From Escherichia coli (GTDB lineage Bacteria; Pseudomonadota; Gammaproteobacteria; Enterobacterales; Enterobacteriaceae): a DNA stretch of 64,000 nucleotides. Made by a program: the position numbers and the translations under genes. Of the stretch, positions 2,119-30,490 are shown piece after piece; within the stretch, counting starts at the first letter, position 1; each line of letters starts with the position of its first letter. Under the pieces are notes generated by a model. The model was not told the origin of the DNA. It did not search any database and was given only the letters and a program-made list of their open reading frames with translations. Location: NCBI RefSeq assembly GCF_045037415.1, contig NZ_CP173438.1, one strand, 5' to 3'.

Positions 2119-3105
2119 GTGGATAGAGATCAAACAAACAGCAGCCTGTTCAATGATGATCCCGTACTTCATGCAACATGGCTGTACTATCAGGAAGGCA
2201 AAAGCCAGACTGAAGTTGCAGCTATCATGGGGGTGTCCCGCGTCACGGTTGTCAAATACCTGCAAACAGCCCGGGAAAATGGACTGGTTCATATCAACCT
2301 GGATGTGAATGTCTTTGGCTCTATCGACGCTGCTTTGCAAATTCGCGATAAATTCAATCTCCAGAGAGTGATCATCGTGCCGGATGGCGAACATGCCGGA
2401 AAACGTGATGATACAAAGCTGATGCGGACTCGCCTTTCACGTGCCGGTGGCATGTATCTGAATCAGGTGATTGAGAATGGTGATGTGCTGGGGGTTGCCT
2501 GGGGAAGAACAATCCATCAGATGAGCAAAACCATGACGCCGAAGTCATGTAAAAATGTCACCGTTATACAGATGCTCGGTTCCATGCCATCTCAGCCAGA
2601 CCTGACGATCATTGAATCCTCATCGCAAATCGCCTACAAGCTTTCAGGCCGTGTCGCCTCGCTGCACGTGCCCGCCGTGGTATCAAGCGCCAGACTGGCC
2701 ATGGAGTTACAGGCAGAGCCTATTATTCGATCGAATTTTGACGTTCTGACTCGCTGTACGAAAGCCTTTTTTGTCGTGGGTAACGCGCTTGATGAAAATC
2801 CCCTGATTCGGGTGGGCGTGCTGAATAAGAAGGAAATGCAGACGTATCGGGATTTAGGCGCAGTAGGTGTCATTTGTGGTCGCTTCTATGACAAGGAAGG
2901 GATGCCCGTCGTGGCTGATGTTGACCAGCGTATTCTGGGAATCAGTCTGGCTCAGCTAAGGCAGATTGAACGGAAGATCTTCCTTGCTGGTGGGGAAAGA
3001 GGCTATGACGCAACGTTGGGTGCCCTGCTGGGAGGATATGTCACGGACCTGATTGTTGATGAAGGAACGGCAGAGTTTTTGCTGGCGTGTGAATTACCAC
3101 ACTAA
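2119..3105 (+). CDS. yjhU: SorC/DeoR-type sugar-binding transcriptional regulator (GTG start)
   Basis: 328-aa ORF with N-terminal HTH (SQTEVAAIMGVSRVTVVKYL) and SorC-like sugar-binding body; position matches K-12 yjhU. Confidence 0.8.
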   Translation: MDRDQTNSSLFNDDPVLHATWLYYQEGKSQTEVAAIMGVSRVTVVKYLQTARENGLVHINLDVNVFGSIDAALQIRDKFNLQRVIIVPDGEHAGKRDDTKLMRTRLSRAGGMYLNQVIENGDVLGVAWGRTIHQMSKTMTPKSCKNVTVIQMLGSMPSQPDLTIIESSSQIAYKLSGRVASLHVPAVVSSARLAMELQAEPIIRSNFDVLTRCTKAFFVVGNALDENPLIRVGVLNKKEMQTYRDLGAVGVICGRFYDKEGMPVVADVDQRILGISLAQLRQIERKIFLAGGERGYDATLGALLGGYVTDLIVDEGTAEFLLACELPH

Positions 3106-3117
3106 AAGAATGAACAA

Positions 3118-3150
3118 CTGCCCCATGTGGATATGGGGCAGGATTTTATT
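3118..3150. terminator. Putative bidirectional rho-independent terminator between convergent yjhU and transporter gene
   Basis: Inverted repeat TGCCCCATgtggatATGGGGCA followed by a T-rich tract. Confidence 0.5.
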
Positions 3151-4151
3151 GATTAGCGGCGATAATAAGAACAATACCCACAATGTATGAAATAAACATG
3201 GTCAGCAGCAGTTTATTGGTTCCGGCTGGCGCACTGGCAAATTCTCTCCAGATGAAGACTCCCCAGATCACGGCAATCATTGTGGCCCCCTGTCCCAGAC
3301 CGTAGGAAATGGCATACCCCGCCTGACCAGACGCAATCAGACTGAATGCCAGACCGACACACCAAATCATACCGCCCAGCCAGCCGCAAACATGATCCCG
3401 TAAGCTCCCGGAAAAATACATTTTCCCGTTGACCGGTTCTCCTGAAATAGGTTTTTTCATGACCAGCGTGTTAAGGACAAAGTTCGACAAGAACAGCCCC
3501 ACGGCAAACAGAACAAGTGCTGAGTAAGGCGTCATCAGACCGCTGGCAGGCTGGCTGAAATTGTCAGACATGGAGTCCGCCAAGAAGCGGAAAAACCATC
3601 CCATGATGATACCCGCCAGAATGGCAGTAATGAGAACCTTTATTACGGCGAGATTTATCCGCCTCCTGCGTGACACGACCATAGGCTATCGCGGTAAAAA
3701 TAATGGCGCTCACAACGCAGGCGACACCGAGGAACAGAATGAGCGGATCGCCCTGCGGATTGCCGATATAGGTGGTGATCACACCCAGAGCCAGTGCCAG
3801 CCCCACACCCACAGGAAAAGCTACCGCCATACCGGCAAGATTAATAGAAGCGACCAGAAGAATATTGGAAATATTGAAGATAATCCCTGCCAGTATTGCC
3901 GACATCAGACTACTGCTGCTCGCCTGCTGAATATCAGGTATAAAACTGCGACCGGCTTCGCCCATAGAACCCAGCGTGAAGGCAAATAACAAAGAACACA
4001 GCAATAATCCAATTGAATAATCCCAATAGAATAGAGGGAACTCCCATTTTTTATTGCTGACAAGTTTAGTTGTATTCGCCCATGAACCCCAGCAAATCAT
4101 GGTAATAAAACACATTATTATGGCGACAGCATACGATTCCACGATAAACAT
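3146..4151 (-). CDS. GRP/RbsU-type (DMT superfamily) sugar uptake protein, apparently frameshifted around 3645-3680
   Basis: Two overlapping minus-strand ORFs (3564-4151 and 3146-3682), both multi-TM, frames switching near a shared SRR(R) stretch. Confidence 0.55.
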
Positions 4152-4254: not shown

Positions 4255-4896
4255 TTACGCTTTCAAACCATACGTTTTGAATTTTTCAAGGACGATGGTC
4301 ATTTCGGCTTCAGACAGCACGGGAACATCGTGATGTAATCCGCCACATTTGATGTATAAATCAGCCAGCGTCTCGGTTTCACCCGCCAGCCACAACGTCT
4401 TTTCCAGCGTGACGTCCATGGCCAGCATACCGTGGTGCTGCATCAGCAAGGACTTACTTTCTCTGATTCCTTTAGATACACCGTCGGCCAGTTCAGGACT
4501 GCCAAAGGTATAATAGGGAATACAGGGAATATGATCCGTCCCCGATACCGCCACCATATAATGAATGGCCGGAATTGAATGATTATGTATTGCCACCGCC
4601 GTGGAATTCACCGCATGCGTATGTATGACAGCATTCAATTCTGGTCTGGCTTTATAACACGCCAGATGAAATAACCATTCACTTGATGGTATTTTACCCG
4701 CTTCAGGTATTCCCTTATCGTCTACAAAGACAATCATGTCCGGCGTCATCTTTGAATAAGCGATCCCACTCGGCGTAATCAACATGCCACCGGTATACCT
4801 GGCACTCACATTACCTGATGTTCCTTGATTAAGACCTGACGCATTCATTTCCCGACAAGTGGAAATGATTTTTTCTGCTAACTTAATCCGTTCCAT
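4255..4896 (-). CDS. Class II aldolase/adducin-family protein (DHAP-shunt type aldolase)
   Basis: 213-aa ORF with class II aldolase signatures (GTSGNVSAR, metal-binding His cluster HTHAVNSTAVAIH); immediately downstream of mtnA. Confidence 0.8.
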   Translation of the reverse strand: MERIKLAEKIISTCREMNASGLNQGTSGNVSARYTGGMLITPSGIAYSKMTPDMIVFVDDKGIPEAGKIPSSEWLFHLACYKARPELNAVIHTHAVNSTAVAIHNHSIPAIHYMVAVSGTDHIPCIPYYTFGSPELADGVSKGIRESKSLLMQHHGMLAMDVTLEKTLWLAGETETLADLYIKCGGLHHDVPVLSEAEMTIVLEKFKTYGLKA

Positions 4897-4926: not shown

Positions 4927-6042
4927 TTAATGCTGTTCCCCCTGGAGTGCTTTACTCTTCAGGTCAGCAAACATATCCGCCAGCGCTGACTTACTGGCAG
5001 CACAGACTCCCCGCTCAGTAATGAAGCCGGTAATGTATCGGGCAGGCGTGACGTCGAAAGCGTAGTTCCCACAACGGGTTCCTTCAGGGGCGGTATTGAC
5101 CCAGCTCAATTCTCCCTGAGGGTTTATCCCATAGACATGGGACTGCTCTTTTCCGTCACGTTGCTCAATCGGAATGCTTTTTCCGTCCTCGATAGTCCAG
5201 TCAATAGTGGGAGAAGGTAACGCGACGTAGAAGGGAACATGGTTATCATGGGCCGCCAGCGCCTTAAGATAGGTACCAATTTTATTACAGACATCCCCTC
5301 TGGCCGTGGTTCGATCGGTCCCAACAATGCAGAGATCAACGTCACCGTGTTGCATCAGGTGGCCACCCGCGTTGTCGGCGATCAGGGTGTGAGGAATACC
5401 GTGTGAGCCCAGTTCAAATGCCGTGAGTCCGCCCTGATTACGTGGCCGCGTTTCATCCACCCAGACGTGAACAGGGATTCCGTTTTCATGCGCTTTGTAG
5501 ATGGGAGAAAGCGCGGTTCCCCAGTCTACAGTCGCCAGCCAGCCTGCGTTACAATGTGTCAGGATATTGACCACACTCCCGGCCGGTTTTTTCTGGGCTA
5601 TTTCGCGGATGACTTCTGTACCATGTAATCCAATTTGTTCACACAACGCGACATCTTCCTCGGCAATTTCTGCCGCCAGCGCCCAGGCCACATCCTTGCG
5701 CTCTGATACACAGAGATCCTTCAGTGTGTCTATCATCCTGTCGAGGGCCCATTTGAGATTAATTGCCGTTGGTCGGGTTTTGATAAGAAGGTCATAGTAA
5801 CGCTGCAGACCCATGTCACTGGCATCGTGATTCATTCCCAGCGCGATGCCATAGGCTGCAACGACACCAATAAGCGGAGCGCCACGAACCCACATCTCCT
5901 GAATAGCCGTAGCGGCCATTTCCGCAGAGGTAAGCGCCACCACCTCGAACTTAAAAGGCAACTTAGTCTGATCGATGATTTCTACCGCTTTTCCATCCCC
6001 GGAAACCCAGACCGTACGATAGTGTTTACCTTTAATATTCAT
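4927..6042 (-). CDS. mtnA: S-methyl-5-thioribose-1-phosphate isomerase (eIF-2B alpha/beta/delta family)
   Basis: 371-aa ORF; N-terminus ...[19 protein letters not shown] and ...[20 protein letters not shown] typical of MtnA. Confidence 0.85.
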
Positions 6043-6051
6043 AATGACCTC

Positions 6052-7311
6052 TTACTTAACCTTCGCAGACTGGATGACGGAATCCATATTTTTAAACTGG
6101 CGGGCATTGACGATAAGATCGCGCGCCATGGTCAATGCACGTCGTTCACATCCTGCGCGAAGCTCTGTATTTTCAATCTGTTTCAGCTCGGCAACGCCAG
6201 CAAAACCAATGATCCGGCGATTCATTTCCATGCCGGCATTCACCAGGGAATCTTCAAGCAGCGTGGCAAAAAACTGATCCTGTGCGTCCTCAAGAGCGGC
6301 CCTGTTCTGTTGATACATTTCTGTCGGCCACGCGTCGCCCTGTGTTTTGTTGTCCCAGAGCTGGCGGAACTCCCGGGTGAAAACGGACCAGGTTTGGACA
6401 ATCTGCTGAAGCAGCCATTCCTGATAGTCAGCGCGACGTTGCTCATTCGCATCCCACCCAGGGCGTGAGAAGTACGCCAGCAGGAGGTTGCCAATATAGT
6501 TGCCGATATCAAACGCCATTGGCCCCATGAAACCGAACTCCGGATCAATCACTTTGGTATCCGTGTCGGTCACCATGATTGAGCCTGAATGAAGGTCGCC
6601 ATGTAACAATGCCTGCGCTTCTGTCATAAATTTGTACTTATAACGCATGGCAACCTGGATCATCTCTACATCAGCCCAGGCCTTATGGACGGCATCGTCC
6701 AGCTCAGGAGAAGTCCAGTTATTCCGTTCAGCGTTGTAATAGGGCTCTGTGAAGATCAGATCTTCCGTAATTTTGCACAGCTCATGATTCAACGCGAACT
6801 CGGCAGTAAGCGCTTTTTTCTGTTCTGCTGACATGCCAATGTCAGACGTATTGAAGAGAGTCTGTGCTAAAAATCTGCCGATATCTTCAGCTAGTTTAGG
6901 GAATTTTTTACCGTTAATCAGTTCCTTACGCAGAATCACGTGAGGAGTCAGATACTCCATGGCAAACAGCGCCATTTCCGGGTCGTAAAAATAGACCTGC
7001 GGAATCAGTGTGTGACCCGCGTACTTGGCTTCCTGACATAAGACGTTGTACTCAAAGCCCGCACGGCTCAGAGATAAAGGCCATCCTTCGCCCCCTGCAC
7101 GAAGCCAGGGCAGAGCTTGTTTTACAATGATGGTTTTATGTGTCCCCTCAACGATAAACACCATGTTCAGGTTTCCGTCCCCCACTTCTGAAACTTTCCA
7201 CTCTTCAGGTAACCCTCCCGGTTCGCATGAAGGGGTCAGTCTGGACGAGAGATAACCCGGCAGCGTGTCACATGTCAGCGGCTTGTAACCTGATGGAATT
7301 GAATCCGTCAT
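6052..7311 (-). CDS. mtnK: 5-methylthioribose kinase
   Basis: 419-aa ORF with aminoglycoside-phosphotransferase-like kinase fold motifs (HGDLHSGSIMV, DPEFGFMGP); 10-bp gap to mtnA. Confidence 0.85.
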   Translation of the reverse strand: MTDSIPSGYKPLTCDTLPGYLSSRLTPSCEPGGLPEEWKVSEVGDGNLNMVFIVEGTHKTIIVKQALPWLRAGGEGWPLSLSRAGFEYNVLCQEAKYAGHTLIPQVYFYDPEMALFAMEYLTPHVILRKELINGKKFPKLAEDIGRFLAQTLFNTSDIGMSAEQKKALTAEFALNHELCKITEDLIFTEPYYNAERNNWTSPELDDAVHKAWADVEMIQVAMRYKYKFMTEAQALLHGDLHSGSIMVTDTDTKVIDPEFGFMGPMAFDIGNYIGNLLLAYFSRPGWDANEQRRADYQEWLLQQIVQTWSVFTREFRQLWDNKTQGDAWPTEMYQQNRAALEDAQDQFFATLLEDSLVNAGMEMNRRIIGFAGVAELKQIENTELRAGCERRALTMARDLIVNARQFKNMDSVIQSAKVK

Positions 7312-7926
7312 AACAGTTCTCCTTGTCTACACAGAATGATAATCAACTTGTCATGTGACAACTATACATTATCAAATGTAAAATTATTTGTGACACATGT
7401 AGATTTTTTGAACTGTATAATATTAAAAATGATGTCGTATGGAGTCATGATCTTTACAGGAATCAGCAGAGGAAAACATCTATTATTACCATGTAATTCA
7501 TGTTGTTATGTCGCAACAATAGTACTGCACGGGGAATTATTACGGGCAAACTTAGGCGAAAGGAAGTACTGAAGTGACAGAATAAATCACACTTTTTGTA
7601 CATATGTACTTTTCTATTGTCTTTTGTTGTGGAAACAAATAGTGTTTGTCATGCCGATGCTAATAGACAGATAGATTCGAGGGCCAACAGCCCCATCATC
7701 ATGATGGAGCAACAGAGGTGAGTCTAACGTTTCCGCACTTCTTATCGATCGGCACTAACGATCAATATCGATAAACTGATCTATCAAAACGATTATCTTT
7801 CTTGCAACCTGCCTGGTTATCCTTCTCTTACATTGCTCGCAGAAAAGCCCTTTTATTACGGTTAGTTATCTAGCTGAGACTTGCTACGCCCATTTTCCAT
7901 GTACCCCAAATCACGAGGTCACAAAG

Positions 7927-8104
7927 GCGCGGAAAGATGAAGAGATGTGCACGTTGCAACAAAAAAAGAAGCGTCCTTGAACAGAGGCTCTCACTCGATA
8001 AAGAATTCTGCGACGAGTGCTTATTCGATATCGATGAGGAAATCAGGGAAAGAAGGATTATCACGATCAGACGCCTCAAAGATGACAACGAAAGAAAATC
8101 GTAG
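7927..8104 (+). CDS. Hypothetical small zinc-ribbon protein (56 aa, CxxC...CxxC)
   Basis: ATG at 7927, ORF MKRCARCNKK...FCDECLFD... to TAG at 8102-8104; below the 60-aa ORF-track cutoff; weak RBS. Confidence 0.2.
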
Positions 8105-8110
8105 CTCAAT

Positions 8111-8857
8111 ATGAAAAATGGAATCGATGTCAGCGTCATTATCCCTGCTTACAACGCCGCTGAAACCAGCGTTAGTTTGGTTACTAAAATCCTCAGTGAA
8201 CCCCACTTGGCTATTGAACTTATCATTGTCGATGACGGTTCTACTGATGAAACTGGCAACGTTCTTCGTCAAATCCACGATGATCGGCTCATTCTCATTG
8301 AGCAGGCCAATCAAGGTGTCTATGCCGCCCGAAATGCTGCTCTAGCCTTGCACCAAGGAGAATAGGTTATATTCCTTGATGCGGACGACGATATAGCAGA
8401 TGGGTTCATAGAAAAAAGATGGCAGGCAGTTAGTACGTCGCAAGCCGACGTCATGATCTTTAATGGCTGGCATTCCTGTGCTGACCAACATCGAAGAGCG
8501 GTTCACAAAAAGCAGCCCTATGGTACGCCTCTGTCAGGTTATTAATGGATTAGACACTGTGTTACACACCGCGAATGGCCGCATTATCTGTGGCTGCAGA
8601 TGGTCAGGCCATCCTATGTCAGGCAGCATTCACTGCGCTTCCAGTCCGGCAGGAGCCATAAAGACATTTTTTAAACGGTTCATCTTGCAGCGAGCAATGG
8701 TTGATTCTGTACATTGGATATAAAGGACTATATCTATATCAACAATAAGGCCTCTATCACACATCGGCCGGATTACTACGTTGTTCGTGCTATAAACTAT
8801 GTTGAAGTGATCGCGAAAATCATCCAAGTAGCGGAACAAGAACAAAACAAAAAATAA
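8111..8857 (+). pseudogene. Family 2 glycosyltransferase, degraded by frameshifts and stops
   Basis: Intact N-terminus VSVIIPAYNAA...IIVDDGSTDET, then DxD motif (FLDADDD) and later segments only in other frames. Confidence 0.5.
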
Positions 8858-9468
8858 AGGTATTTTTGTACCGGCATGCGCTGGTAGAGGCACGTCATTT
8901 TTTGGGACTCTACCGCAATCGCGTTGGGGATAAATCGGGCATGAAGGACTGCTTCAAAGCGAACATATTCGCAGCCCATTTATTCAGAGGTATCAGCAGT
9001 TTTAGCGATGTGTTTTTCTTTATTAAGCTGCTGGGCAAGCTATTCTGATAAGTTGTGCGTTGCTACACGACACCAGCGCACAGCTTAATTTCACGCTTTC
9101 TGACTAAATTGTTCAGGCCTTTTCTATAGGTGCAAACACAACTCCCCGTACTTTCCTCTTCCAACTCAAAATCATCGCACCTTGCTGACCCAAGAAGGGA
9201 GCATACCCTGCACTAGTATCCGCACAGCTAATACTCTATTGATACCAACAACGCTTCAGCACAACAAAGTAACTCGATAATCACAACTCAAAGTGAAGAT
9301 GCCAAAAACTCGTTTGAGAGCAATAAATTCAATAACATGAAAAAAATGTATTTTGCATTGAAAATCTTACTTATTGCGCTTGGCTACAATTGCATGCTTG
9401 GTAATATAGATTATAAAACACCAGACTAGCTGCCTGGTAAGTAATGTAATAGCAGAGGAAATATCACG

Positions 9469-11544
9469 ATGGATCTTGTAGATAGTGTCGAAGCAGGTAA
9501 GCTGACGATCAGTGAATTGATTGATGCCCTGGCGAAAGATAAAAATTACTCAGCTTCCAAGTGGGATCAGCGATACCGTGAATTTACGACCTTGCTACAA
9601 CAAACCTCAACTTTTTCTGAACCTGAAACGGATGGTTTAGTCAAGAGGCTCTGGTATGAACGCGATAACGGTATTGCCAGTATTCGCCAGGGCGTTCCAT
9701 CCTTAGCAGAATATCAGCAAAGCCTGCCACTGCTTAGAGAACTAACTGAACGAATTCGGCAACAGCCGGATGAAGAAACTTACCAATATGTTGGCAATGC
9801 ACTACAACAAGCTAAAGAAAACGGACTTCTCAAGCGTATGTATAGGAGTTTGAGAAATCGCGTCTTTGCCGCGTTCTCGCCAGAAAACTACACCAGTACT
9901 GTGGATGAGAATGCTTTTAGTAAAGCAGCAGAATTCCTAAATCAGCACTTCCATCTCGGTCTGGCACTGACCGGAAATTGGTTACAGAAAAACTATGAAT
10001 TGAAACAAGCCATACACGCCCAATCTCCTGACACAGATCCTTATTACGTGAATATGGCCATCTGGCATCTCTATGAATTGCTCCGTGAACGCGATAATGA
10101 ACAAAAGCAGGAGAAAATAGCGAGCACTACATTCATAACCAGCAATGAGCCCATCGAGAACAAGATCATCCTACATTCACCAACTAACGTGATCTTCTTT
10201 GGCCCCCCTGGCACTGGCAAAACCTTCAGGTTGCAGCAAAAAATGAAAGAGTACACTTCTCATGCTGTTCCAGCTGATCGTGATGCCTGGCTGGATTCTC
10301 GCCTTGAATCGTTGAATTGGATGCAGGTTATAACGCTGGTGCTGCTCGATCTTGGGAAACGAGCCAAAGTTCGCCAAATTATTGAACATATGTGGTTTCA
10401 ACGTAAGGCATTATTAAACGGTCGTAATGGCAACCTATCGAATACAGCCTGGGCAGCTTTGCAATCCTATACAGTTCCCGAGTCGTTAACCGTTGATTAT
10501 AAGAATCGGCGTGAGCCTGCCGTATTTAACAAAACAGATAACAGCGAATGGTTGCTAGTTGATTCACAGCTCGAGCAAGTGGAGGATTTGGTAGAGCTCT
10601 ACGCCGAACTTAAACGAGGCCCTAAATCTGCCGAAGCCATCCAGCGTTTTGCGGTGGTTACGTTCCACCAATCTTACGGCTATGAAGAATTTATTGAAGG
10701 TATACGCGCTCGCTCTGACGAGAGTGGCAATATCTCTTATCCCATTGAGCCGGGTATCTTTATGCGCCTTTCCCAACGTGCCAATGCCGATCCAGGACAT
10801 CGCTACGCCATTTTCATTGATGAGATCAATCGCGGTAACATATCCAAGATCTTTGGTGAACTAATCTCACTCATTGAAGTAGACAAGCGTGCAGGCATGC
10901 CCAATGCAATGAGCCTACAACTGGCTTATAGCGGTGATCACTTCAGCGTACCCGCCAATGTCGATATCATCGGAGCCATGAATACAGCGGACCGTTCTTT
11001 AGCTCTGATGGACACGGCTTTGCGCCGTCGCTTTGACTTTGTCGAAATGATGCCCGATCTCTCTTTACTGAGTGGAGCTAAGGTGAAAGGCATAGAGCTC
11101 GAGTCGTTGTTAGAGAAACTCAATAGCCGCATCGAGGCTCTTTACGATCGTGAACATACGCTGGGGCATGCGTTCTTTATGCCGGTAAAAAATGCACTCG
11201 ATGCCGGTGATGAAGAAGCTGCGTTTAAACAATTGAAGATCGCATTCCAGAAAAAGATCATTCCGCTTTTACAGGAATACTTTTTCGATGACTGGAACAA
11301 GATCCGGTTGGTGCTGGCAGACAATCAAAAGCAAGACGACAACCTGCAATTCGTGATTGAGAAAACCGACGATCTCGATACGCTTTTTGGTAACAACCAT
11401 GGTTTACGACACCATGATCAGCAATCAACAGCTTACGAACTCAAAGATTTCGATCAAGAGATCTGGAATATTCCACAGGCTTATCGTTCAATTTATCAGC
11501 CCCAGCAGACTCCCCTTGATGAGCAGGCTGTAAATCATGGGTGA
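9469..11544 (+). CDS. McrB-family AAA+ GTPase (type IV restriction subunit) with non-canonical ~230-aa N-terminal domain
   Basis: Walker A FFGPPGTGKTF; McrB signature FHQSYGYEEFIEG; Walker B FIDEINRGNISKIFGE; MNTADRSLA...ALRRRF. Confidence 0.85.
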   Translation: MDLVDSVEAGKLTISELIDALAKDKNYSASKWDQRYREFTTLLQQTSTFSEPETDGLVKRLWYERDNGIASIRQGVPSLAEYQQSLPLLRELTERIRQQPDEETYQYVGNALQQAKENGLLKRMYRSLRNRVFAAFSPENYTSTVDENAFSKAAEFLNQHFHLGLALTGNWLQKNYELKQAIHAQSPDTDPYYVNMAIWHLYELLRERDNEQKQEKIASTTFITSNEPIENKIILHSPTNVIFFGPPGTGKTFRLQQKMKEYTSHAVPADRDAWLDSRLESLNWMQVITLVLLDLGKRAKVRQIIEHMWFQRKALLNGRNGNLSNTAWAALQSYTVPESLTVDYKNRREPAVFNKTDNSEWLLVDSQLEQVEDLVELYAELKRGPKSAEAIQRFAVVTFHQSYGYEEFIEGIRARSDESGNISYPIEPGIFMRLSQRANADPGHRYAIFIDEINRGNISKIFGELISLIEVDKRAGMPNAMSLQLAYSGDHFSVPANVDIIGAMNTADRSLALMDTALRRRFDFVEMMPDLSLLSGAKVKGIELESLLEKLNSRIEALYDREHTLGHAFFMPVKNALDAGDEEAAFKQLKIAFQKKIIPLLQEYFFDDWNKIRLVLADNQKQDDNLQFVIEKTDDLDTLFGNNHGLRHHDQQSTAYELKDFDQEIWNIPQAYRSIYQPQQTPLDEQAVNHG

Positions 11545-12823
11545 AGTTATCTCCGTTTTTGAATATGACCTATTGGGGAGTGACAAAGCGGCTTCAGTTG
11601 GCGCAAAACTGGTGCCTCCACTGGTCTTTAATTATTTAGAAGCGCTTAGCTTGGCAAGTAATCAAGGGAGCCAGTTCCTCAAACTCACCTCTCGCTCAGG
11701 CTTCAAATTGCTTCAGGTTCAAAACTACGCGGGGATGCTTTCAACACCTCACGGTTTCCAGCTTGAGATACTGCCCAAGGTTGGTAAAAACCTCACAGCG
11801 GCTAATGCACGTCAAACATTACTGACGATGCTAAGCCATTTGCCTGGGTTTCGACATATTGAAACTCAGCAAGCCACTCTTCAGGCTCAGCGTATGCCTT
11901 TGCTTGAGATTTTTATTCACCAGTTTTTGCATAGCGTTAGCCAATTACTTAAACAAGGTTTACGCTCCGACTATGTGAGCGAGCAAGGTAATCTGGCTTT
12001 TATGAAGGGCAAGCTGATGCTTTCTGCACAGCTGCGACATAACGCGGTGAATCGCCATAAGTTTTGTGTCGATTATGATGACTACATGCCTGATTGTGCA
12101 GCCAATCGGCTCTTACACTCCGCGCTAGATAAGCTTCTTAGTCTAAAGCTGTCATCAGAGAATCAACGCTGGCTTTACGAACTGCGCTTTGCGTTTGACG
12201 GTATTCCACTTAGCCGGGATATTGAACGTGATATAAACAACTTACGCCTCGAGCGTGGTATGGCTCATTACAACGAGCCAATGGCGTGGGCGCAATTGAT
12301 CCTGAGAGGAATGAGTCCGAGTGCTTTGCAGGGAAACACCAAAGCGATATCACTTTTGTTCCCTATGGAAGCGGTATTTGAATCCTTTGTGGCACAGACC
12401 CTACCCTACGAATTACCTTCTCATCTCAAAGTAATACCACAAGCGGCTACTTATTCTCTTGTGAAGCACGGGTCTAACGATTGCTTTAAACTTCGGCCGG
12501 ATTTGTTGATTCAGTCACGTCGACCGGTACAAACCAAATTGGTGATGGACACAAAATGGAAGCTAATAAATAGCAACTCCCAAAAAACAACACAGTATGG
12601 GCTAGCGCAAGCCGACTTCTATCAAATGTTTGCCTACGGTCAAAAATACCTAAATGGGATTGGCGAAATGTACTTAATCTATCCTGCGCATGATCAATTT
12701 AACCAACCGATACAGCAGCATTTTGCTTTCTCTAAAACATTAAAACTATGGGTTGTTCCGTACCAGATAACAGCAAACCGCGGGGAGAGGATGATGTGGG
12801 TGAAGGATGTGTCCAGTATATAA
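11537..12823 (+). CDS. McrC-family nuclease subunit
   Basis: 428-aa ORF overlapping the McrB-like stop by 8 bp (translational coupling); C-terminal PD-(D/E)xK-like LRPDLL...VMDTKWK. Confidence 0.75.
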   Translation: MGEVISVFEYDLLGSDKAASVGAKLVPPLVFNYLEALSLASNQGSQFLKLTSRSGFKLLQVQNYAGMLSTPHGFQLEILPKVGKNLTAANARQTLLTMLSHLPGFRHIETQQATLQAQRMPLLEIFIHQFLHSVSQLLKQGLRSDYVSEQGNLAFMKGKLMLSAQLRHNAVNRHKFCVDYDDYMPDCAANRLLHSALDKLLSLKLSSENQRWLYELRFAFDGIPLSRDIERDINNLRLERGMAHYNEPMAWAQLILRGMSPSALQGNTKAISLLFPMEAVFESFVAQTLPYELPSHLKVIPQAATYSLVKHGSNDCFKLRPDLLIQSRRPVQTKLVMDTKWKLINSNSQKTTQYGLAQADFYQMFAYGQKYLNGIGEMYLIYPAHDQFNQPIQQHFAFSKTLKLWVVPYQITANRGERMMWVKDVSSI

Positions 12824-30233: not shown

Positions 30234-30444
30234 CAGCTTTTCCTTACAGAGGGTGAATAAAAAAGCCGGTACCCACAAAAGTGGATACCGGCAGGTACAA
30301 AACAGCATGGTCAGATAAAGTGGTTTTTCCCGGACATAAATGCTTCCCCTCTCTCATCCGCCAGAGAAGTATCAGTCCGTTGTGTGCAATTCCGTTCTGC
30401 ATGATGAAGAGATTCAGCTGCCTTTTCGCAGACCATTAACCACT

Positions 30445-30490
30445 ATAAACGATCGATGGTAACGATCGATACCTGTTTTATCGATCGTTT
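30445..30490 (-). promoter_or_regulatory. flu (agn43) phase-variation switch region with three clustered GATC (Dam) sites
   Basis: GATC at 30451-30454, 30464-30467 and 30483-30486 upstream of the flu start. Confidence 0.55.

Follow-up and report, generated by a model that had tools for sequence, protein, structure and literature searches.

A Paired Palindromic Element in the mtnK Promoter of Escherichia coli Is a Probable Bipartite Operator of the DHAP-Shunt Repressor MtnR

The mtnK Locus and Its Repressor

In the window (the whole 64-kb stretch of E. coli DNA analyzed here), mtnK is followed by mtnA, ald2, and a sugar transporter gene, the four genes having been reported to form one operon (Huening et al. 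2025, PMC12632272) (Table 1). [quoted passage not shown] Of the 5,426 complete E. coli genomes, 1,075 contain the 129-bp promoter region, which is at least 99% identical in 1,046 of them. The transporter gene carries a 1-bp insertion near position 3635 relative to Nissle 1917 (GAGAACC vs. GAGACC), which yields two open reading frames (3564-4151 and 3146-3682); some ST131 records likewise contain two pieces annotated as "DMT transporter permease" at this locus. Upstream of mtnK, approximately 2.1 kb (7312-9468) is essentially non-coding, with only an 84-aa glycosyltransferase-family fragment (8111-8365) annotated in RefSeq, and is followed by a McrB-like/McrC restriction pair (9469-12823). No remnants of fucU or ABC-transporter genes, such as those present in the Vibrio clusters, were found in this non-coding stretch.

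Table 1. Features of the mtnK locus, in coordinates of the window
Feature	Coordinates	Strand	Remarks
yjhU = mtnR, SorC/DeoR-family repressor	2119..3105	+	PF04198, 268 bits; convergent to the operon, just beyond it
GRP/DMT-type sugar transporter gene	3146..4151	-	Last operon gene; frameshifted in the window
ald2, class II (fuculose-phosphate-type) aldolase	4255..4896	-	RefSeq
mtnA, sugar-1-phosphate isomerase	4927..6042	-	RefSeq
mtnK, 5-methylthioribose/5-deoxyribose kinase	6052..7311	-	TIGR01767, 522 bits; RefSeq; first operon gene
Box II	7348..7361	-	mtnK-sense strand TTGTCACATGACAA; the predicted palindrome; proposed promoter-proximal half-operator of MtnR
-10-like hexamer TATAGT	7361..7366	-	Between the boxes
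Box I	7369..7382	-	Sense strand TTTACATTTGATAA; proposed distal half-operator; 21 bp center-to-center from Box II
CAAAT-N8/9-ATTTG semi-palindrome	7373..7390	-	Possible MtnR site according to PMC12632272, over the -10 element of that paper; right arm is part of Box I
Published P1 start region	7379..7383	-	72 bp stated, 68 bp implied by the CRP coordinates of the paper; numbering checked against the pLacZ66 primer
CRP-like site ATCTA-N6-TCACA	7389..7404	-	Centered 85.5 bp upstream of the ATG; TCACA half at 7389-7393
Box 0, dyad-like TCTACATGTGTCAC	7390-7403		21 bp upstream of Box I; overlaps the CRP-like site

The product of yjhU, renamed MtnR, represses P1, the main regulated promoter of the operon, as indicated by genetic evidence, and a 126-bp promoter fusion is fully regulated, in an MtnR- and glucose-dependent manner, with a 66-bp fusion being inactive (PMC12632272). 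The sequence recognized by MtnR was declared not yet known in that 2025 paper, in which the protein is labeled a "DeoR family" member (PMC12632272). MtnR combines PF04198 with an N-terminal helix-turn-helix domain, and its closest homolog of solved structure is the full-length DeoR of Bacillus subtilis (8r7y, E=1e-41), with SorC and LsrR next in rank. Because of the PF04198 domain and the structural homology to B. subtilis DeoR, MtnR is a member of the SorC/DeoR subfamily and not of the E. coli DeoR/GlpR family (HTH_DeoR/DeoRC). In the SorC/DeoR subfamily, the DNA-bound repressor is a tetramer, built as a dimer of dimers, that contacts two half-operators (PMC11229326). ChIP-exo analysis of YjhU in K-12 yielded no peaks (PMC6237786), which, given that K-12 lacks the operon, fits an operator residing in the DHAP-shunt promoter.

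Two Dyads in the mtnK Promoter

The leader of mtnK is AT-rich (33% G+C), as predicted, and contains the predicted 6-bp inverted repeat TTGTCA-N2-TGACAA with perfect arms and a 2-bp spacer (TTGTCATGTGACAA), here denoted Box II. It lies 37-50 bp upstream of the ATG (position 7311, minus strand), in agreement with the anticipated distance of about 40 bp. Box II is identical in strain ATCC 25922, as judged from the primers of PMC12632272, where distances are counted from the ATG and TTGTCA..TGACAA receives no mention. By itself, the repeat is statistically unremarkable compared with chance. For the exact pattern with at most one mismatch, the expectation is 0.22 occurrences per window, and 21 of 100 shuffles had at least one; perfect repeats with 6-bp arms and a spacer of 0-4 bp were seen in 34% of the dinucleotide shuffles of the 150-bp leader and number 122 in the 64-kb window; within the leader, there are nine inverted-repeat pairs. 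What goes beyond chance is the pairing of Box II with a second dyad 21 bp away, combined with cross-genus conservation.

The second dyad, Box I, precedes Box II on the sense strand, where the promoter reads ...ATCTACATGTG TCACA AATAAT-[ TTTACATTTGATAA ]-TGTATAG-[ TTGTCACATGACAA ]-GTTG..., with the two boxes bracketed. Both fit the 14-bp dyad TTnnCAnnTGnn AA (unspaced, TTnnCAnnTGnnAA), with the cross-genus consensus TTTACAWWTGTAAA, and each is a perfect match to TTNNCANNTGNNAA. When the window was scored with position weight matrices, Box I was its top-scoring position, even with a matrix lacking Escherichia and Citrobacter. Box II ranked ninth among the approximately 64,000 positions with the all-genus matrix and scored only about 5 bits with the matrix excluding these two genera, because it carries GT/AC in place of TA/TA at positions 3-4 and 11-12. 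The two boxes are the sole pair of TTNNCANNTGNNAA matches (with no more than one mismatch) 15-32 bp apart in the 64 kb, and two perfect matches 20-21 bp apart were obtained in none of 300 window shuffles and none of 20,000 leader shuffles. Since the TTNNCANNTGNNAA pattern was derived after the data had been seen, the leave-one-clade-out and out-of-sample scans described below represent fairer tests. Both boxes are contained in the 126-bp fragment sufficient for MtnR-dependent regulation. The hexamer located between them, TATAGT in E. coli, is represented by TATAGT, TATACT, or TATAAT across the aligned Enterobacterales promoters and may be the functional -10 element.

Box-like sequences are also found farther upstream. 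Box 0 scores about like Box II in the window and was considered as a third box. Its right half is lost in Citrobacter and in the divergent E. coli allele, and because of this lack of conservation and the overlap with the CRP-like site, it is treated as a coincidence. A second box-like pair (7597-7610 and 7617-7630; TGTACATATGTACT and TTGTCTTTTGTTGT), with a spacing of 20 bp, is located about 290 bp upstream of mtnK and is the third-best pair in the window; it may serve as an auxiliary operator or be left over from a different promoter under MtnR control. Additional upstream boxes, at differing distances, are present in Providencia and Morganella.

Conservation of the Paired Element Across Genera

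A scan of species-representative genomes with MtnK produced 14 loci, from Citrobacter (95% MtnK identity), Providencia (78%), Vibrio (three loci, 68-71%), Aliivibrio (64%), Xenorhabdus (62%), Morganella (five loci, about 60%), and a Chloroflexi genome (41%). The promoters of the first operon gene, which is mtnK in Enterobacterales and the gene for an ABC-transporter ATPase in Vibrionaceae, were anchored on Box 2, resulting in an alignment of 14 promoters from 7 genera, namely, that of the window and those of 13 gammaproteobacterial loci. All 14 contain the same module, consisting of an invariant TCACA, Box 1, the -10-like hexamer, and Box 2 at 20-21 bp from Box 1, and the sequence around the module is unalignable between genera. 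The Box 2 variants (TTGTCACATGACAA, TTGTCATATGACAA, TTTTCACATGATAA, TTGCCATATGATAA, TTTGCATATGTAAA, TTTACATTTGTAAA, and TTTACATATGTA) conform to the consensus TTTACAWWTGTAAA, with C5, A6, T9, and G10 nearly invariant. Conservation in orthologous loci had been proposed as a check on the predicted palindrome, and the outcome was divided: the literal TTGTCA..TGACAA is present only in E. coli and one Citrobacter, whereas a dyad occupies the homologous position in every genus examined (e.g., TTGCCATATGATAA, TTTTCACATGATAA, TTTGCATATGTAAA, and TTTACATTTGTAAA). In the divergent E. coli allele, Box II reads TTGCCATATGATAA, with TT..CA.ATG..AA retained. More broadly, E. coli, Citrobacter, and Providencia share an invariant TT..CA..TG..AA, and nearly all boxes of the other genera have C5 A6/T9 G10, with one exception in Xenorhabdus.

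Leave-one-clade-out matrices placed the promoter pair first in all 13 related loci. Among the approximately 64,000 positions of the window, the best single site was Box I, and the pair of Boxes I and II came second to that of Box 0 and Box I. Four 17-kb loci that were fetched later through their MtnR homologs and kept out of motif building, those of Photobacterium, a metagenome-assembled genome, Chelonobacter oris (Pasteurellaceae), and Pseudovibrio (Alphaproteobacteria), were scanned out of sample with a matrix derived solely from Enterobacterales. In every one of them, the best pairs were located in intergenic promoters of DHAP-shunt genes, often with two pairs per locus, one at the ABC-mtnK operon and the other at the fucU or mtnR promoter. 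No comparable pair was detected in four control loci lacking either mtnR or the DHAP-shunt genes: those of Proteus and a related genome, which encode proteins with 54-60% identity to MtnR and have no DHAP genes, that of a SorC paralog with 40% identity, and the mtnK locus of Chloroflexi, which has no mtnR. An MtnR ortholog adjoins mtnK-mtnA-ald2 in 17 of 18 loci, the exception being a short Xenorhabdus contig. The cluster may spread horizontally as a unit, in which case part of the conservation would reflect shared ancestry rather than selection and the apparent independence of the loci would be inflated; the flanking promoter sequence, however, cannot be aligned between genera.

The MtnR-like proteins of Proteus and of a metagenome-assembled genome (54-60% identity; 8001-8984 and 8001-8981, respectively) are encoded beside cutA1, with an unrelated ABC transporter in Proteus only. 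Because these loci contain neither DHAP-shunt genes nor a box pair, the proteins are probably paralogs of MtnR with a different target. The clusters of Vibrionaceae and Pseudovibrio differ from that of E. coli in that the operon begins with a gene for an RbsD/FucU-type mutarotase and encodes a ribose-type ABC transporter in place of the GRP permease. The mtnR/fucU intergenic region of Vibrio, Photobacterium, and Pseudovibrio has a box pair of its own, which suggests that MtnR control may extend to the genes of this region.

The CRP Site and the Transcription Start

CRP binds the promoter fragment, forming one dominant complex in gel shift assays, and is required for growth on 5-deoxyribose; the CRP site favored in the same work is centered 103.5 bp upstream of the ATG (PMC12632272). 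In the aligned promoters, this favored site is not conserved even within Citrobacter. The CRP-like site ATCTA-N6-TCACA, which corresponds to the "lower confidence, -17.5" site of the paper (PMC12632272) and lies on the gel-shifted fragment, contains the TCACA half that is invariant in 14 of 14 loci. In every other genus, the best CRP-like site is the one including the invariant TCACA, where 8-9 of the 10 core positions match in Morganella and Vibrionaceae and 6 of 10 in Providencia and Citrobacter.

The published P1 start, "72 bp upstream of mtnK", was mapped with primers extended on a cDNA pool (PMC12632272). The coordinates given in that paper for the start, the -10 element, and the CRP site are mutually off by 4-7 nt, and the position of a second promoter, P2, is stated variously as 188 and 218 bp upstream. 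Counted from the published start, Box I would extend from about -3 to +15 and Box II from about +19 to +36, so that repression would act on promoter clearance or as a roadblock. Placing the conserved CRP-like site (center 7396.5) at the class II position of -41.5 leads to a start at about 7355, and TATAGT independently leads to 7354; by hand arithmetic on the aligned sequences, the conserved site is also at -41.5 in Morganella and Vibrio. With a start at 7354/7355, Box I would cover -27 to -14 and Box II -6 to +8, an arrangement that would imply classical promoter occlusion by box-bound MtnR. Such a start, about 44 bp upstream of the ATG and inside Box II, is in conflict with the published one at 68-72 bp, and the underlying geometry disagrees with the CRP site favored in PMC12632272. 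The 66-bp fusion does not discriminate between the two models, because the CRP site is missing from it under either.

A Candidate Bipartite Operator and Its Alternatives

Four features expected of a SorC/DeoR-type bipartite operator are found together at this locus. A cognate SorC-family repressor is encoded beside the operon it regulates (the repression itself being known from PMC12632272); two half-operator-like dyads are separated by approximately two helical turns (21 bp in E. coli and 20-21 bp in the other loci); the pair overlaps the regulated promoter, being contained in the 126-bp fragment alongside the CRP-like site and the -10-like hexamer; and, according to the clade-out and out-of-sample scans and the four controls, it co-occurs with the regulator and is absent where the regulon is absent. 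Taken together, these observations make it probable that Box II is an MtnR half-operator, one of two paired sites. Weighing against this reading are the low score of Box II with the matrix lacking Escherichia and Citrobacter, the similar score of Box 0, the frequency of chance repeats in the leader, and the published start, from which the boxes would occupy about +2 to +36 instead of covering the -10 element. In addition, a matrix scan for MtnR boxes revealed nothing convincing at the promoter of K-12 efeU, a gene reported as derepressed in the mtnR deletion strain (PMC12632272), or upstream of yjhU itself. The prediction that the palindrome serves as an operator of the downstream operon would hold in kind, based on the comparative evidence, and was incomplete in that the palindrome appears to be half of a two-box element formed with Box I. 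The present analysis shows that the dyads are paired, that this pairing is conserved along with mtnR, and to which family MtnR belongs.

The arrangement suggests a simple mechanism. In an MtnR tetramer (dimer of dimers), each pair of DNA-binding domains would sit on one 14-bp dyad, with TTnnCA as the half-site and TTTACAWWTGTAAA as the consensus. The spacing of 21 bp between Boxes I and II amounts to two helical turns, so that both dyads would be exposed on the same DNA face. Since the boxes flank the -10-like TATAGT and closely follow the conserved CRP site, MtnR occupying them would block RNA polymerase at P1 when the 5-deoxypentose substrate is absent, and it would presumably be released by a phosphorylated intermediate of the pathway. 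In this scheme, we infer the direct binding of MtnR, the stoichiometry of the tetramer, the nature of the inducer, and where the boxes lie with respect to the actual start.

A more far-reaching reading, which we regard as possible and put forward tentatively, is that MtnR truly operates through Boxes I and II within a class II CRP promoter composed of the TCACA site and TATAGT, and that transcription starts at about 7354/7355 within Box II. If so, the module of CRP site, Box 1, -10-like hexamer, and Box 2 would mark a conserved regulon by which MtnR controls the catabolism of 5-deoxypentoses and methylthioribose in Enterobacterales and Vibrionaceae. Box pairs by themselves also occur in a Pasteurellaceae species and an alphaproteobacterium. 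The two-box motif offers a testable candidate operator, a means of predicting MtnR regulons in other bacteria, and a reason to reexamine the CRP site and the start. The paired boxes would answer an explicitly open question and challenge the published promoter model; they would not represent a new mechanism.

Among the alternatives, the one that survives best, yet appears unlikely, is that Box II is a chance palindrome devoid of function and that MtnR acts only through CAAAT-N8-ATTTG or through Box I alone. The chance level of such repeats in the leader, where comparable ones arise in about a third of the shuffles and nine pairs are present, is compatible with this possibility, as are the weakness of Box II against the cross-genus matrix and the location of the CAAAT candidate over the -10 element proposed in PMC12632272. 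Against it, a dyad recurs 20-21 bp from Box 1, with its invariant core kept, in every genus examined. The CAAAT..ATTTG semi-palindrome itself shows no conservation beyond Citrobacter, be it in Providencia, Morganella, or Vibrio, and its right arm belongs to Box I.

It is less probable still that Box II is the operator of another regulator, such as MetJ, Fur, or a nucleoid protein. The leader is AT-rich, and a 7-bp repeat, TGATAAT/ATTATCA, flanks Box II; furthermore, MtnR has been connected with iron-related genes (PMC12632272). The GATAAT arms are not conserved in Providencia, however, and the box pair tracks mtnR and the DHAP genes, including those of the alphaproteobacterium. With respect to MetJ, the best leader match to the met-box (tandem AGACGTCT octamers) covers 10 of 16 positions.

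That Box II is a secondary CRP site modulating transcription from downstream of the start seems very improbable. This notion draws on the TGTGA on the plus strand at 7354-7358, on the threefold occurrence of TGTGACA in 130 bp, and on a 22-mer, centered 50.5 bp upstream of the ATG, that matches 6 of the 10 CRP core positions. Against it, the partner half-site, TACAT, is poor compared with the TGTGA-N6-TCACA pattern, and neither TGTGA nor TCACA is found in Box 2 of Citrobacter On2M, Providencia, Morganella, or Vibrio, the TGTGA thus being lost in other genera. Besides, the gel shift showed a single dominant CRP complex (PMC12632272), and the conserved CRP-like site is located elsewhere, upstream of Box I. 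The three copies of TGTCACA/TGTGACA are located at 7266-7274, 7352-7360, and 7389-7395, and there are 10 copies in the 64 kb. With a matrix score of -22.8, the TGTCACATG copy in the first codons of mtnK (7266-7274) does not resemble a box, and its sequence appears to be constrained by the encoded protein.

Least probable of all is a 5' leader RNA hairpin affecting mRNA stability or translation: although the palindrome would be transcribed if the published start (68-72 bp) is right, and symmetric substitutions would keep the stem, the 2-nt spacer forces a 5-bp stem, the predicted folds are weak in E. coli (-4.2 kcal/mol, z = -1.3) and in Morganella and Aliivibrio (-1.3 to -2.8 kcal/mol), the whole-leader fold has z = -1.0, and Box 1, which is upstream of or at the start, has the same motif. 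Among the four species for which folding was computed, the Providencia hairpin is an exception (-7.4, z = -5.3). In Firmicutes, mtnK is controlled by an S-box/SAM riboswitch. An Rfam scan of the whole window produced no match in the mtnK leader, which, along with its weak fold, does not support a cis-regulatory leader RNA. Elsewhere in the window, a match to the IS102 RNA (30252-30488, 68 bits) marks an insertion sequence.

Comparison With Known Operators

The closest parallel to Boxes I and II, here read as a probable MtnR operator, is the DeoR operator of the B. subtilis dra-nupC-pdp operon, ATTGAACAAAATTTCAAT-TACCAAT-TTACATATGTTCAA (PMC11229326). In both cases, a repressor of the same family is associated with two (pseudo)palindromic half-operators approximately two turns apart that overlap the promoter. 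The DeoR operator is bound by a tetramer (PMC11229326), and the MtnR boxes match this architecture, with binding of an MtnR tetramer being predicted. The effector of DeoR is a sugar phosphate, and the right half-operator of DeoR contains TTTACATATGT, which is identical to the core of the Morganella box. The two operators differ in detail: the DeoR half-site is TTGAA with an inner spacer of 6-7 bp (a 16-18 bp palindrome), compared with TTnnCA-N2-TGnnAA (14 bp) for the MtnR boxes, and the DeoR operator is located at -60 to -21, whereas the MtnR boxes stand on either side of the -10-like hexamer or, if counted from the published start, only a short distance downstream.

The published model of P1 (PMC12632272) concerns the same locus and promoter and features the same actors, MtnR as the repressor and CRP as the activator. 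It puts forward CAAAT-N9-ATTTG as a possible MtnR site and favors CRP binding at 103.5 bp, whereas the comparative data point to Boxes I and II and the CRP-like site at 85.5 bp. A tandem two-part operator is also known from the B. subtilis gapA operon, where the operator of the SorC/CggR-type repressor CggR is bound by a tetramer of two dimers, lies downstream of the start (+32 to +77), and is released by sugar phosphates; the MtnR operator, a candidate by sequence, resembles it in having two tandem parts. CggR differs from MtnR in its winged-helix DNA-binding domain and its repeat motif, CGGGACN6TGTC, and the match between the two proteins is weak (E about 1e-4).
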